DNA from: a virus
Virus record (IMG/VR): IMGVR_UViG_3300036985_006427
Span: 1 to 64,000 of that record
Length of the DNA: 64,000 bases
Direction: 5' to 3' (one strand)
The notes below the pieces were generated by a model that saw only the letters and a program-made list of their open reading frames with translations, searched no databases and was not told where the DNA came from. Numbering within the stretch: the stretch's first letter is position 1; the number at the start of each line of letters is the position of its first letter. Position numbers and translations under genes: made by a program. Below, piece by piece: positions 111 to 24,732 of this stretch.

Positions 111-596
111 ATGAGAAAATGTCGCAAGTGCAAAATAAATGAAGTTATAGAAACTAGAAAATTCTGCAGTGACTGCAAAATACAATCAAAAAATTGTATA
201 TGTGGTAAAGCATTTAAGTCTAAAAAACATAACTATTGTCCTAGATGTAGAACATCTAAAGGTGACAATGAGAAATGCTATGTTTGCGATGAATTCAGAT
301 TTATTTATGCTCAGGGGTGTTGCACAACCTGCTATAGATTTTTAACTAAATATAAAGTTACACCAAATGAATTACTTGAACTGCGCAAAATTTTAAACTG
401 TCAATTGTGCGGAATTGAGGTGTCTCATCATGTAGGAAATGGAAAGGGCAGAGCTGTGATAGATCACTGTCATGAAACTGGTAACGTCAGGGGGATTTTA
501 TGCAATCATTGTAATATAATTGAAGGAATGATAAGGAACGTTGACCACCTAGAAAATTTCTATAAAAATTATAAAAGATGGGTAGATCATGCCTGA
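111..596 (+). CDS. Endonuclease VII-type (His-Me finger) nuclease with Cys-rich N-terminus; possible homing endonuclease
   Basis: CQLCG...IDHCHETGNVRGILCNHCN Endo VII signature; several N-terminal CxxC pairs. Confidence 0.8.
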   Translation: MRKCRKCKINEVIETRKFCSDCKIQSKNCICGKAFKSKKHNYCPRCRTSKGDNEKCYVCDEFRFIYAQGCCTTCYRFLTKYKVTPNELLELRKILNCQLCGIEVSHHVGNGKGRAVIDHCHETGNVRGILCNHCNIIEGMIRNVDHLENFYKNYKRWVDHA

Positions 597-2889
597 ATGT
601 CAATGTGAAAATGCCGGTTGGTGTGATTTATTCAAAAAAGAAATGACGTATGATCCTCCAAACTGGCAGTGGTGCAAATCACTGTCAGAGGATCAGCGTC
701 GTGACTATTTCAATAAAATGGAAAGCACTGTGAGGGTTTTAAAAAAAGCTCCAGACAAAAAAAAAGCTGACATCGTAAATTTCTTTGATATTCTACCTGA
801 AAAAAAAAGTAAATATGCTGTGTGCGTCATTCCAGCGAATGATTCGGCAATGGAATTGCTTGATATCACACGAGCTGGAGTAAAGAAGTATGCGGAAAAA
901 TGTGGTGCTGATTACATAGAGTTGTCCGGAGATCAAAACCCAAATTGGCCTATGTCAAATAAATATAGACTAAACAGGGTAGCAAAAGCGTATGACAAAA
1001 CATTATATTTAGATTGTGACATTGTCGTAAAGGATGATGCTCCGAATATATTTGAGCTAACACCAGATGATAAAATATCTGCATATGATGAATATGAGAT
1101 TTTTAAACAAAGAAATGACACTGCATGGATCAGAAACCAACAAGAGCATATCTTTATCACCACGCTAGACTCCTTTTCTGACGACATAAAAGAAGAGTAT
1201 ATAACAAATGGTGAATTCATAACGGAATCAATGATAAATGGTGGCGTTCTTGTCATACCAAACGCTTTAGCAGATTATTATAAACAACCAAGCAGTCCAT
1301 ATACTAAATTTTGGTGTTTTGATCAACATCTTTTAACCTTGGAGCTTCCAGAGGAAAAATTTAATAATCTTACTTACAAATTTAATTGTGAATATGAAGG
1401 AAATGATTTTTGGAATTTCGTAAATAATTCTCATTTTATTCACTTCAACGGACTCAAGAATAAACCTGACCTTAGAAAAAGTCTATTAAATCAATTTAAC
1501 CTTGGAGACTTTACTCCGATTAGTGCAGATCTGACTGTTGTTATCCCTTGCCACAATTACGCCCGATATCTGGGCGAATGTCTACAGTCGGTAGCTGATT
1601 CGTCGAAGCTTCCTGTTCGCGTAATTATTATTGATGATGCGAGCGATGACGATCCTCAAACGGTATGCATGGAATATTTCCTTTCACACAAATTCGAATA
1701 CCGTCGTGTAGAATTCCGTGATGTTCATCAGGTGCGTAGATTCGGATTATCACTTGTCGAAACAAAATACGTCCTTTTTTTGGACGCCGACAACACGTTG
1801 AATCCCGGCTATTTGCAGCACTGTGTTCAAAGACTTGAAAGGGACAGAAACGCGGCGTTTGTCTTTCCTATGCTCTTGGCTTTTGATGGCGGTGCGGGCT
1901 TCTTGCATGAAATTAATCTAGCCCCCAATATAGTCCAGTGGAAGGACATTGAAATGCGGAACTTGTGCGATGCCGCATGTGTTCATCGGACGGAAGTTTT
2001 GAGAAGCTCCTTGGCTCTGAAGGGCGATATATCAACTACTTGCATGGCACAAGATTGGCGAATGGCCAGAACCATTCTCCGCGCTGGTTCTTGGCATGGG
2101 CTGAAATCTGAAATTCCTCTGAATTATCGTATTCATTCGGATCAAATGACGACGCAGCCATCAAAATCAGTCTGGATTGGCTCGGATCTGGAACATGAAA
2201 TTGTAACGATCATCGTCGCATTCTCCGGCAGGTGGGATGTGTGGCTAAAACTGAAAGAATGGATTGTCAGTCAGTCATGGCCTGCCGAACAAACAAGACT
2301 TATGATTCTGAATTCCACTCATTCGGCTTTGTCTGTGGCTGATTTTGGGTTGGAAGCATTAAAGCTCTCTGGGATTCAGATTGAGAGAATTGACGCCGGG
2401 AGACCTCTATTGGCGGATCTGGACCGTCGCCCTTCTCAATTGATCGGTAGAGAAGTGGAAGCAGCAGTTGCAGGGTTGTACAACCGGGCGATTCAGATGG
2501 CATTTGGCGAGTATATCTTTTTCTTGGAAGACGATGTTATTCCACTCAGGCCGGATGCGATTAAACAGTTGTTTCAGGGAATGGGAGCGCTGGTGGCGGC
2601 AGTTTCAGGGTTATATAAACATCGATATTTTGAAAACGCGGTGGCGTTTTATCTTCCGTTTACCGGCCAATTGTTCCCGATGACAGGGGTTGATTTTGAG
2701 AAAGTTGGGGGAACGGGATTTGGTTGTCTTTTAGCAAGAAGATCATTGCTGCTAAATTACTTGTTGTCTGGCGATGATATTAGACATCCTCATTATGATG
2801 TTGATGTTTCAGTAAGGGTGGCGAAAGATGGTTGGGAATGGTGGTTAGACAGGACGGTGAAATGTGACCATTTGATAAATGTTGATTAA
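589..2889 (+). CDS. Multidomain glycosyltransferase: Cys-rich N-terminus, GT8-like domain, GT2 domain and a third GT-A domain
   Basis: YLDCDIVV...INGGVL...DQH...HFNG (GT8-like); VVIPCHNY...IIIDDAS...FLDADN (GT2); FFLEDDVIP...GFGCLL...H (GT-A). Confidence 0.8.
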   Translation: MPECQCENAGWCDLFKKEMTYDPPNWQWCKSLSEDQRRDYFNKMESTVRVLKKAPDKKKADIVNFFDILPEKKSKYAVCVIPANDSAMELLDITRAGVKKYAEKCGADYIELSGDQNPNWPMSNKYRLNRVAKAYDKTLYLDCDIVVKDDAPNIFELTPDDKISAYDEYEIFKQRNDTAWIRNQQEHIFITTLDSFSDDIKEEYITNGEFITESMINGGVLVIPNALADYYKQPSSPYTKFWCFDQHLLTLELPEEKFNNLTYKFNCEYEGNDFWNFVNNSHFIHFNGLKNKPDLRKSLLNQFNLGDFTPISADLTVVIPCHNYARYLGECLQSVADSSKLPVRVIIIDDASDDDPQTVCMEYFLSHKFEYRRVEFRDVHQVRRFGLSLVETKYVLFLDADNTLNPGYLQHCVQRLERDRNAAFVFPMLLAFDGGAGFLHEINLAPNIVQWKDIEMRNLCDAACVHRTEVLRSSLALKGDISTTCMAQDWRMARTILRAGSWHGLKSEIPLNYRIHSDQMTTQPSKSVWIGSDLEHEIVTIIVAFSGRWDVWLKLKEWIVSQSWPAEQTRLMILNSTHSALSVADFGLEALKLSGIQIERIDAGRPLLADLDRRPSQLIGREVEAAVAGLYNRAIQMAFGEYIFFLEDDVIPLRPDAIKQLFQGMGALVAAVSGLYKHRYFENAVAFYLPFTGQLFPMTGVDFEKVGGTGFGCLLARRSLLLNYLLSGDDIRHPHYDVDVSVRVAKDGWEWWLDRTVKCDHLINVD

Positions 2890-2993
2890 TTAGGATTTCC
2901 GAATTGATTCAAATGAAAATCGTGTTGATGGATTTATCAAAATAACAAGATAAACCTTTTACAAATACGCTCTAAAAATATAGGAAAATACAT

Positions 2994-23286: not shown

Positions 23287-23359
23287 GATTATAGGTTGTA
23301 AAGGAAATAAATTCAGAATCTTTAGATGATATTATATTAGACCTAGTGGAGAACTATAA

Positions 23360-24289
23360 ATGAAAGTTTTATTGACTGGTGGTACTGGATTCTTGGGAAA
23401 AAATCTGCAAAGATATTTTCAAAACGATAAGCATTACGATGTAGTGGCACTGTCTAGCGAAATGTACGATCTGCGTTTCGGAGAGGCTTGCAGAAGAGCT
23501 ATCGAGGATCATGCGCCAAATGTCATCATTCACGCTGCCGGAAGCGTAGGAGGCATTCTGGCGAATCAGCAGAACCCCGGAAAGTTCATGTATGATAATC
23601 TAGCTATGGGTATGAACATGCTCGAACAAGCTAGGGTTTACCAAGAAACGCATACTCCATTAAAGTTCGTTATGCTTGGAACGGTTTGTGCGTACCCAAA
23701 GTACACCCTTGTTCCTTTTCGGGAATCAGAACTGTGGAATGGATATCCTGAAGAAACAAACGCTCCATACGGAATCGCCAAAAAGACACTCATGAAGCTT
23801 GGCGAAACTTACCATCAGCAATACAAAATGGACGTTGTGAATCTTGTGCCTGTGAACATGTACGGGCCACACGATCATTTTAATCTAACAAGTTCTCATG
23901 TTATTCCAGCACTGATACTAAAATTTCATGAGGCAATAAAAAACAATCAAGACGTGACTGTATGGGGAAGTGGCAAAGCGTCAAGAGAATTTTTATATGC
24001 TCCAGATTGTGCTGAAGCCATCAAGCTGGCTATCGAAAGCAATGTAGGACCAGAACCAATAAACATTGGAACTGGAAAAGAAATAAGGATCTCAGACCTT
24101 GTGGAAGAAATTGCCCTTCAAATGAATTTTAATGGTTCGATCATTTTAGATTCTACGAAACCTGATGGTCAACCAAGAAGATGTTTAGATACGACTCTTG
24201 CTGAAAAGCGATTGGGCTTTAAAGCTAAAACTGATTTTCAAACCGGATTAAAACAAACTATTCAATGGTTCTTGGGAGAACAAAGATGA
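23360..24289 (+). CDS. fcl: GDP-L-fucose synthase
   Basis: TGGTGFLG, VGGILAN..PG.FMYDNL, GTVCAYPK, YGIAK, SHVIPAL, WGSG..SREFL, KPDGQPRRCLD. Confidence 0.93.
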   Translation: MKVLLTGGTGFLGKNLQRYFQNDKHYDVVALSSEMYDLRFGEACRRAIEDHAPNVIIHAAGSVGGILANQQNPGKFMYDNLAMGMNMLEQARVYQETHTPLKFVMLGTVCAYPKYTLVPFRESELWNGYPEETNAPYGIAKKTLMKLGETYHQQYKMDVVNLVPVNMYGPHDHFNLTSSHVIPALILKFHEAIKNNQDVTVWGSGKASREFLYAPDCAEAIKLAIESNVGPEPINIGTGKEIRISDLVEEIALQMNFNGSIILDSTKPDGQPRRCLDTTLAEKRLGFKAKTDFQTGLKQTIQWFLGEQR

Positions 24290-24732
24290 ATTTAGGCTTT
24301 TTTATTCAGAACAATTGCGGAACTCCACAAAACACCAAGATCTATAAGTTTCTAAATGAAGCTATCAGTGATCATGCTTTACGAGACGCAAGTGTTTTTT
24401 TCAATGACGTTGGCTTCAATCCAGTGAATCCAAGATTTGGTATGTTTGATGGAGCGGATATCTGGAGCTTCAAAGGCAATTTGATTTGCACGTCCGTAGA
24501 GAATTTAAGAAAGGCTGTTTCTATAGTCAACGCAATCAAGGTTGCGTATCTTTTTAGCTCAAGCGATCCTGTTGAAAAGAACATTTTCGACTTTGTTAGT
24601 ATATCAAAATCCTATAAAGTTTTAGTGGACAATGAGGTTGATCAAAATACTTTTTATAGACTAACTGGCGTAAAGCCAATCTTGATGCAAGAATGGTCAG
24701 TGCCTACACTCAGCGAGGTTTTCAATGAATGA
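24286..24732 (+). CDS. Hypothetical protein
   Basis: ATGA-coupled to fcl with a GGGAG RBS. Confidence 0.6.
   Translation: MNLGFFIQNNCGTPQNTKIYKFLNEAISDHALRDASVFFNDVGFNPVNPRFGMFDGADIWSFKGNLICTSVENLRKAVSIVNAIKVAYLFSSSDPVEKNIFDFVSISKSYKVLVDNEVDQNTFYRLTGVKPILMQEWSVPTLSEVFNE

Follow-up and report, generated by a model that had tools for sequence, protein, structure and literature searches.

What is a tailed phage building with some 24 kb of glycan-assembly genes, and on which molecule would the finished glycan sit? The question is posed by IMG/VR virus record IMGVR_UViG_3300036985_006427, a 109,965-bp linear contig (CheckV completeness 66%) whose first 64 kb are referred to here as the window; positions are those of the window unless given as contig positions. 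Its gene content (terminase, tape measure, ClpP-like protease) is that of a tailed phage; the large terminase (TerL) and the ClpP-like prohead protease are encoded beyond the window, as is a Gp80-like fibre protein. Pfam, NCBIfam and PHROG scans of the window revealed a dense run of plus-strand glycan genes from 589 to ~24,732, broken by a split DnaE module at 5323-9218. A preliminary description of the sequence had proposed that this cluster glycosylates the phage's own virion proteins. We found that it consists of a core conserved throughout a phage family and of cassettes exchanged between strains, that its proteins are soluble, and that export and priming genes went undetected in the contig, in two complete relatives and in a close strain. 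The reading we tentatively favour is a phage-encoded cytoplasmic assembly line that would glycosylate virion proteins; as in chloroviruses, the glycan would have a conserved core, with outer sugars that differ between strains.

The run encodes 12 glycosyltransferase (GT) genes, a GalE-like short-chain dehydrogenase/reductase (SDR), a GDP-fucose synthase family protein (Fcl), a LicC-like nucleotidyltransferase and three firmly assigned methyltransferases. The GT count combines Pfam, NCBIfam and PHROG scans, profile-versus-PDB searches and AlphaFold models searched with Foldseek; three GTs without a Pfam match were recognized by a family profile (orf13), by AlphaFold and Foldseek (orf18) and by PHROG (orf19). 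The roughly 12 GT-like genes of the preliminary description (GT2, GT4, GT8, GT11, CgeB-like and DUF5672-like), its epimerase (10955-12019) and its GDP-fucose synthase (23360-24289) were all recovered. So was its embedded polymerase, a plus-strand DnaE split by Pfam into a PHP and palm part (5323-6960) and a fingers part (7653-9218) that flank a DEDDh exonuclease (6950-7627). We count these genes as replication functions embedded in the cluster, not as glycan genes. Three of the "at least 4" methyltransferases it counted are firm (orf12, orf21 and orf24), and the fourth, orf15, is a weak language-model lead, which makes that count a little too high.

The split DnaE served as the conserved anchor for comparing 55 related loci, recovered from IMG/VR with the N-terminal half of DnaE as the query. 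Three relatives of the contig under study (G000) recur below: G001 (173,842 bp) and G002 (166,833 bp), both 100% complete by CheckV and syntenic with it, and G011, a close strain with ~92% DNA identity to it (46% complete). In about 40 loci, DnaE-N, the exonuclease and DnaE-C are followed by orf9, an optional island B, orf13, orf14, orf15, a small gene, orf17, orf18, orf19, island C, Fcl and orf27-30, and then by giant structural genes on the opposite strand. Searches with TerL and orf9 found no close relative among deposited phages; the best deposited-phage matches of TerL, at 22-26% identity, are siphophage terminases from Microcystis phage MaeS and the Bacillus phage Basilisk group. No homologue of orf9 was found in 50,697 deposited phage genomes, and more than 3600 were found in metagenomes, the best 120 at identities of 71% or more. 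The phage family to which the contig belongs is marine, uncultured, large and very common. Contigs of this family, up to 152 kb long, were also seen inside metagenome-assembled genomes (MAGs) of GTDB (L083-L086). We rejected the MAGs carrying orf9 homologues as a guide to the host, since their labels (Flavobacteriales, Verrucomicrobiales and SAR202) contradict each other; because of this disagreement, the contigs are probably mis-binned phage contigs and no evidence of host.

Judged by homology and synteny, the family-wide core comprises five GTs (orf9, orf13, orf14, orf18 and orf19), the nucleotidyltransferase, Fcl and a GDP-mannose 4,6-dehydratase (GMD). Its most conserved glycan gene is orf9 (9318-11006, on the plus strand like every cluster gene except orf5), encoding a GT4 enzyme with a GT-B fold and a C-terminal helical extension (PF00534). 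Identity is 66-78% in 38 loci (mean column identity 77% in alignment A4) and 74% to G001 and G002; the corresponding figures for these two genomes are 68-73% (DnaE-N) and 73-78% (TerL). A core as conserved as DnaE and TerL across a diverse family is easier to reconcile with a conserved acceptor of the phage than with host glycans, which vary. The best PDB fold match of the orf9 model (AlphaFold AF2, pLDDT 82) is the GT B736L of chlorovirus NY-2A (E = 5e-17, target-normalized template-modelling score TMt 0.75; the next matches are at ~1e-13), at a sequence identity of only 18%. The divergent GT4 orf13 (13340-14452; 32 loci) has no Pfam match as a single sequence; its family profile A1 matched WbaZ-1, GlgA and B736L among PDB sequences (E = 3e-5 to 1e-4). 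orf14 (14445-15425) is a GT4 enzyme (PF13692 and PF00534, ~5e-14) present in 31 loci at 41-78% identity. orf18 (17078-17968) gave no sequence-level match in Pfam or a sequence-only PDB search; its predicted structure (AF2 pLDDT 87) is a compact GT-B fold that Foldseek matched to GT1 and GT4 enzymes, including BshA (query-normalized score TMq 0.58), MshA (0.51) and T4 beta-glucosyltransferase (0.50). The GT-A/GT2-like orf19 (17987-18697; PHROG 14945 glycosyltransferase, 7e-16) is 60-72% identical in G001 and G002 and falls into atlas phage clusters in which 24% of members carry PF00535.

Three further genes of the core lie between orf14 and orf18. The small protein orf15 (15422-15841; 28 loci) falls into phage-only atlas clusters, and methyltransferase clusters appear only at an atlas score of 0.90-0.91. 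The next gene (15843-16349) has no Pfam or PHROG match, and its product is 29% identical to the C-terminal 170 residues of orf151 of G001 (E = 1e-21). The family profile A3 of orf17 (16279-17097, true start probably near 16336; 23 loci) matches the CTP:phosphocholine cytidylyltransferase 1jyk over its full length (E = 5.6e-7), the matches to NTP_transf_3 and GlmU being weak; orf17 is thus predicted to activate a sugar-1-phosphate or a phospho-alcohol. Fcl (orf26, 23360-24289) has NF047922 as its best NCBIfam match, full length at 7e-80 and 269 bits, which is under the 500-bit equivalog cut-off and places it in the GDP-L-fucose synthase family. Fcl is 64-68% identical in G001 and G002 and 94% in G011; GMD and Fcl together are conserved at 64-69% relative to the two complete genomes.

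GMD itself lies outside the window, on the minus strand at contig 94073-95173 (PF16363, 3e-109). It belongs to a minus-strand run of genes with overlapping stops and starts leading down to the prohead protease (contig 92409-93080) and the terminase (90412-92412), and for this reason we place it in the packaging module; in G000, G001 and G002 alike it is upstream of the prohead protease and TerL.

Around this core, the cluster is organized in three islands of lower GC content (0.325-0.35 versus ~0.39). Island A opens with orf2 (589-2889), a 766-residue multi-domain GT with a GT8-like domain at residues 125-293, a GT2 domain at 316-441 (Pfam, with six-frame GT2 matches) and a weak second GT2-like stretch. 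It continues with the strain-specific orf3 (2994-3731), which has no Pfam, NCBIfam or PHROG match and no homologue in G001, G002 or G011, the GT2 gene orf4 (3724-4308; PF00535, E = 4e-5 and 23.9 bits, barely above the cut-off) and the GT8 gene orf5 (4379-5155; PF01501, E = 3.8e-8), the sole minus-strand gene of the cluster. Island B contains orf10 (10955-12019), a GalE-like NAD-dependent sugar epimerase/dehydratase (PF01370, 4e-41; best NCBIfam match GalE at 132 bits, below its cut-off) found in 12 loci of a single sub-clade; orf11 (11982-12773), a DUF5672 GT-like protein (PF18922, 2e-15; 8 loci); and orf12 (12770-13333), assigned by Pfam to Methyltransf_24 and of the sugar O-methyltransferase type. 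orf12 is missing in the near-identical locus L005 and present in L006 and L020, and its paralogue in G001 also matches TylF and rhamnosyl O-methyltransferase models. Island C comprises the FkbM methyltransferase orf21 (19325-19957; PF05050, 2.5e-21), the CgeB-like Glyco_trans_1_2 GT orf22 (19908-20813; PF13524, 3e-16), the GT2 gene orf23 (20803-21480; PF00535, 6e-12), the class I S-adenosylmethionine (SAM) methyltransferase orf24 (21624-22385; several Methyltransf models at ~5e-5) and orf25 (22543-23286), a strain-specific member of the GT11 alpha-1,2-fucosyltransferase family (PF01531, 2.7e-33) absent from G001, G002 and G011.

The close strain G011 is collinear with the contig except for two clean replacements with sharp breakpoints. 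The first (1517-5225) exchanges the C-terminal two thirds of orf2 together with orf3-5. The first 309 residues of orf2 are kept at 91% identity and the remainder is replaced; because the breakpoint, near position 1516, coincides with the boundary between the GT8-like and GT2 domains, we conclude that domains are shuffled within a single GT gene. The second (19316-23333) exchanges the FkbM methyltransferase, the CgeB-like GT, the GT2, the SAM methyltransferase and the GT11 gene; orf22 is only 53% identical in G011, though the flanks are ~92% identical in DNA. More distant relatives carry yet other chemistries in island C. That of G001 (L065:1794-14208) encodes FkbM, a dTDP-glucose-dehydratase-like SDR, two DegT aminotransferases, FdtA and an ATP-grasp protein, together with a GT-D-like protein, a TylF-like methyltransferase and GlmS; the SDR, the DegT pair, FdtA and ATP-grasp protein look like a set of the dTDP-3-amino-3,6-dideoxyhexose type. 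That of G002 (L070:10657-14711) encodes a sulfotransferase, a DUF6625 protein and a GT47-like GT.

The system is therefore a conserved core plus O-antigen-like swappable cassettes, and conservation across related contigs holds for the five GTs, the nucleotidyltransferase, Fcl and GMD but not for islands A, B and C. The same split applies to the fucosylated, O-methylated glycan of the preliminary description: the chemistry is encoded (GMD, Fcl, GT11, FkbM and Methyltransf_24), but the fucosyltransferase gene and two methyltransferase genes belong to strain-specific cassettes and are no fixed features. The cassette swapping and the divergent chemistry of the relatives suggest a surface-exposed product under diversifying selection.

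One surface that such a product could reach is that of the host. The phage GTs might use primers that the host links to undecaprenyl phosphate and, on the cytoplasmic side of the membrane, extend them into a glycan resembling O-antigen or capsule, which a host flippase or ABC exporter and a host ligase would carry to the cell surface, with the effect of blocking superinfection or of keeping progeny from re-adsorbing to infected or lysed cells. We regard this host envelope remodelling as possible but doubtful; it replaces hypermodified DNA as the main rival. The gene content is that of O-antigen loci (nucleoside diphosphate sugar genes, GT2, GT4, GT8, GT11, FkbM and Methyltransf_24), the islands have the lower GC content given above, and cassettes are exchanged at the strain level, as in bacterial O-antigen islands. 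Several fold matches are to GTs that act on lipid-linked acceptors (WaaG, PimB', PglA and WbaZ), and the main cluster stands behind sigma70-like sequences with the replication genes. Host remodelling is also how the closest known cases have been read in print, namely phages S-SCSM1 and S-SCSM2R (PMC9602691, PMC12801897) and P-SSM2, and the host-recognition clusters of pelagimyophages (PMC7029224).

Export and priming genes bear directly on this alternative. In every cluster protein the Kyte-Doolittle score of 19-residue windows stays at or below 1.55, and no N-terminus is signal-like; these calls come from a Kyte-Doolittle heuristic, not a trained predictor. Models for initiating transferases (Bac_transf PF02397 and Glycos_transf_4 PF00953) and for Wzx flippases and ABC-2 permeases (Polysacc_synt PF01943 and ABC2_membrane PF01061) were unmatched in G000, G001, G002 and G011, and the controls were positive. 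So far as the two complete relatives can represent the missing third of the contig, no export genes were found elsewhere in the genome. Transmembrane (TM) scans of G000, G001 and G002 gave no polytopic membrane protein; Wzy was covered by these scans only, and no model search was made for it. One ORF (open reading frame) with six TM segments in G002 was discarded, since it is an artefact read antisense to the tape-measure gene, which continues past the contig end. The absence of a signal- or TM-bearing cluster protein, flippase, ABC exporter and priming GT asserted by the preliminary description thus stands. Phage serotype-conversion systems (GtrABC, Oac and Wzy-beta) likewise find no counterpart: neither a tyrosine integrase nor a polytopic membrane protein was found, serine recombinases not having been searched.

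For host remodelling, these results are awkward. An initiating transferase, a flippase and an ABC permease are missing even from complete genomes, and the TM scans offer no Wzy-like polytopic protein. To assemble a whole glycan with at least five core sugars and then rely on the host to export a structure foreign to it is much to assume, and classical lysogenic serotype conversion is inapplicable without a tyrosine integrase. Core GTs as conserved as the DNA polymerase across the family, GMD in the packaging operon and GTs in the fibre module also speak against it, the last two indicating late, virion-linked use.

The fibre module belongs to the virion genes that adjoin the cluster, as the preliminary description had it: tape measure and giant fibres occupy the minus strand from 26660. 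This module (26660-59952, minus strand) encodes orf31 (249 residues), fibre/adhesin proteins of 1403, 1695 and 4158 residues and a tape measure of 2792 residues; the tape measure matches PhageMin_Tail and the 4158-residue protein has FG-GAP repeats by Pfam, and most structural proteins have no match in PHROGs or Pfam. Its proteins are candidate acceptors of the glycan. In four family members (G000, G001, G003 and G005), GT genes occur within the fibre module itself as separate ORFs in the same direction; in the contig under study a second DUF5672-like gene (contig 72873-73490, minus strand) lies inside the variable fibre cassette.

A candidate late promoter, defined by sequence, marks the structural genes. 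The motif TTTTTGTGTATAAT occurs 16-51 bp upstream of orf31, orf41, orf62 and orf65 (window 27445-27454 and 63668-63677; contig 85195-85204 and 88293-88302, all on the minus strand), and its exact core TGTGTATAAT is present in four copies versus 0.6 expected. The fibre-module GT of G000 is preceded by a near-match to it. Exact copies were not found before the plus-strand glycan genes, and copies with one mismatch, including those before orf5 and orf21, are not above chance (23 versus 17 expected). Upstream of the terminase small subunit-position gene and GMD, a ~171-residue ORF (contig 95986-96504, minus strand; L003:12986-13504) resembles sigma-factor region 2; its sole support is a weak PDB match to an RNA polymerase sigma factor (E = 0.09), and it could drive the late-promoter-like motif.

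The circumstantial support for virion acceptors thus consists of the fibre-module GTs, GMD in the packaging operon, the conservation of the core and the chlorovirus-GT fold match of orf9. Soluble GTs, the lack of export genes and of a tyrosine integrase, and the parallel with chlorovirus PBCV-1 were counted on the same side, and together they make virion glycosylation, in our tentative estimate, the best account; the giant tail fibres are probably the acceptors.

Several observations pull the other way. No sequence feature identifies an acceptor, of whatever kind. The lack of TM and export genes is not decisive, because O-antigen GTs are also soluble or peripheral and host undecaprenyl-phosphate primers and exporters could serve. 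Glycan variation is not coupled to the fibre genes orf32-36, since these stay ~92% identical in G011 while islands A and C swap. Upstream of the main cluster are sigma70-like sequences and not the late motif, and the cluster is co-oriented with the replication genes; chlorovirus GTs are also expressed early (PMC9614988), which tempers this point. An enrichment of the dipeptide SG in the 4158-residue protein (window 39093-51569, minus strand; 92 versus 37 expected) and in a 1563-residue fibre protein (contig 66015-70706, minus strand; 64 versus 29 expected) was considered as a glycosylation sequon and rejected: GS is not enriched, the context is weak (a small residue, S, G, a hydrophobic residue) and there is no established link to glycosylation. 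It could be a beta-turn motif and was not counted as a sequon. Finally, where similar clusters of marine phages have been interpreted in print, modification of the host surface is preferred, none of these readings having been tested (PMC9602691, PMC12801897, PMC7029224).

The preliminary description had named hypermodified DNA as the main alternative, given the polymerase embedded in the cluster. Under this explanation, the GT-B enzymes encoded after the polymerase would glycosylate modified phage bases in the manner of T4 or TET-type systems, further GTs would extend the chain, and the DNA would be protected from nucleases. Conserved GT-B genes do lie directly downstream of DnaE family-wide, and the orf18 fold resembles T4 beta-glucosyltransferase (TMq 0.50) among many GT-B enzymes. 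We set this resemblance aside as evidence for DNA modification, as BshA and MshA match as well or better. Phage DNA reportedly can bear glycans of several sugars (Pyle et al. 2024). Models for a ThyA-family hydroxymethylase (PF00303), Tet/JBP (PF12851) and a C5 DNA methyltransferase (PF00145) were unmatched in G000, G001 and G002, and both complete relatives encode ThyX, for ordinary dTMP. The methyltransferases of the cluster are of sugar or small-molecule O-methyltransferase types (FkbM and Methyltransf_24/TylF-like), not DNA methyltransferases. The amino-dideoxy-sugar, sulfation and fucose chemistry of the relatives' cassettes is typical of surface glycans, and we know of no DNA modification with any of these, a point on which no search was made. 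With ThyX in both complete relatives and none of the known routes to a glycosyl-acceptor base, DNA hypermodification appears unlikely from gene content, and we give the scheme as a whole very little weight.

A last group of acceptors would comprise proteins outside the virion, either non-structural ones of the phage or cytoplasmic ones of the host; alternatively, the oligosaccharide would stay free or be linked to a lipid and be released at lysis, for instance as a decoy or matrix. The sequence, which by itself points to no acceptor, leaves room for these, and the LicC-like nucleotidyltransferase, which could activate a phospho-alcohol such as phosphocholine, hints at unusual chemistry. Such acceptors leave the links to the structural and packaging modules unexplained, and to our knowledge there is no precedent for a family-conserved 20-kb phage pathway serving an acceptor other than virion, envelope or DNA, although no literature search was aimed at one. 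We consider them improbable.

If virion proteins are the acceptors, the pathway might run as follows; we infer the order of the steps, the sugars other than fucose and, above all, the acceptor. Host GDP-mannose would be converted to GDP-L-fucose by the phage GMD and Fcl, as their presence suggests, and further activated donors would come from the GalE-like epimerase and the LicC-like nucleotidyltransferase. The soluble GTs orf9, orf13, orf14, orf18 and orf19 would build a core oligosaccharide, to which the cassettes would add variable outer sugars and caps, here including alpha-1,2-fucose and O-methyl groups. Island A would contribute its multi-domain GT8/GT2, GT2 and GT8 enzymes, island B its epimerase, DUF5672 protein and methyltransferase, and island C its FkbM protein, CgeB-like GT, GT2, SAM methyltransferase and GT11.

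The remaining genes in and around the cluster are of less certain relevance. An endonuclease VII-like gene, orf1 (111-596), flanks it on one side, and an HNH/homing-endonuclease-like gene (24725-25489) follows on the other. Before the latter stands orf27 (24265-24732), the last candidate member, which is 37-44% identical in G001 and G002 and matches no family. orf20 (18690-19328), the last gene before island C, matched no family searched and gave no match in a sequence-only PDB search; it is 97% identical in G011 and absent from G001 and G002. The relatives carry an extra small ORF between the exonuclease and the second DnaE half (G001 90547-91029; G002 46230-46631). The one in G002 is a homologue of orf1 at 35% identity, and its G001 counterpart carries no annotation. 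The split DnaE may owe its form to mobile endonucleases. In the structural region, a gene of ~160-190 residues (contig 86312-86890, minus strand; L003:3312-3890) lies between a 483-residue scaffold-like coiled-coil protein and the putative major capsid protein, and may encode a head decoration protein.

GT clusters with GMD, Fcl and GT11 have been described before in marine cyanomyophages, and virion glycosylation is an established fact for chloroviruses, mimiviruses and mycobacteriophages. What is new is an abundant, uncultured, DnaE-bearing phage family with a five-GT core and a GDP-fucose pathway as its syntenic hallmark, the documentation of cassette exchange between 92%-identical strains, and the absence of export genes in complete genomes. 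Marine phage glycan gene sets have so far been read as host cell-wall modification without any test, and this family offers a cleaner case, with its five-GT core by the polymerase, its own GDP-fucose pathway, its lack of export genes and its cassette swaps at 92% identity. With somewhat more reserve than for virion glycosylation as such, we propose that an abundant marine family may make its own glycan coat for the virion, probably on the giant fibres, with a conserved core and with outer sugars exchanged as cassettes even among near-identical strains (fucose and O-methyl groups here, amino-dideoxy sugars or sulfate in relatives). If so, bacteriophages would have an equivalent of the glycans of chloroviruses and mimiviruses, and diversifying selection in the ocean would act on phage "glyco-serotypes". 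At sea, such variable sugar coats could influence adsorption, stickiness to particles, grazing and decay; they would also be a form of phage diversity that escapes gene-sharing networks. A glycan on the host would instead mean that lytic phages rewrite host O-antigen through host exporters. The core GTs (orf9, orf13, orf14, orf18 and orf19) are soluble and could be expressed and assayed without culturing the host.

How the cluster compares with known systems follows from these features. Bacterial O-antigen and capsule loci contain the same kinds of nucleoside diphosphate sugar genes, GT families and methyltransferases, in low-GC cassettes exchanged between strains. They differ in what the phage cluster lacks, namely an initiating phosphoglycosyl transferase, a flippase and an ABC exporter (by model searches), and a candidate polytopic polymerase or chain-length regulator (by TM scans).

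Marine cyanomyophages and pelagimyophages such as P-SSM2, S-SCSM1 and S-SCSM2R are closer in content, with GMD, Fcl, GT11, epimerases and several GTs in hypervariable regions near tail-fibre genes. Their gene sets have been described as cell wall or lipopolysaccharide genes and host-recognition clusters (PMC9602691, PMC12801897, PMC7029224), with up to 13 GTs in cyanomyophage S-SCSM2R (PMC12801897). Unlike them, the family described here has no T4-like myovirus backbone; it has a split DnaE replicase and a TerL ~25% identical to that of any deposited phage. Its GMD is only ~44% identical, its orf9 has no deposited-phage homologue, and its five-GT core is conserved and syntenic family-wide beside the polymerase.

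In mycobacteriophages, GT genes adjoin structural genes. Freeman et al. reportedly described mycobacteriophage virion glycosylation in Cell Host Microbe in 2023. The likeness lies in the GTs inside the fibre module and in a cluster that abuts the virion genes. According to a published summary (PMC12619734), mycobacteriophage GTs modify proteins of the capsid and the tail tube. The difference is one of scale, with few GTs there (two in phage Maravista) versus 12 or more plus nucleotide-sugar synthesis here; homology to the mycobacteriophage GTs was not detected, and a Ser/Thr-rich extension at the C-terminus is missing from the major capsid protein of the phage described here.

GMD and GDP-fucose synthase are also chlorovirus-encoded, and a conserved core is common to the N-glycans on chlorovirus capsids. 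The glycan genes of chloroviruses are dispersed in the genome, whereas those of the phage are clustered with swappable cassettes. The phage system is moreover that of a tailed bacteriophage in a bacterial host, raises no question of endoplasmic reticulum or Golgi, and is known from genes alone. In PBCV-1 and NY-2A, as here, soluble, cytoplasmic, multi-domain GTs and sugar O-methyltransferases are encoded by the virus, and the capsid N-glycans carry strain-specific outer sugars (PMC9614988). The phage cluster shares these virus-type features in its soluble GTs, free of TM and signal segments, and in its virus-encoded nucleotide-sugar synthesis (GMD, the Fcl family protein, and the GalE-like and LicC-like enzymes), and the best solved-structure match of its most conserved GT, orf9, is the NY-2A enzyme B736L.

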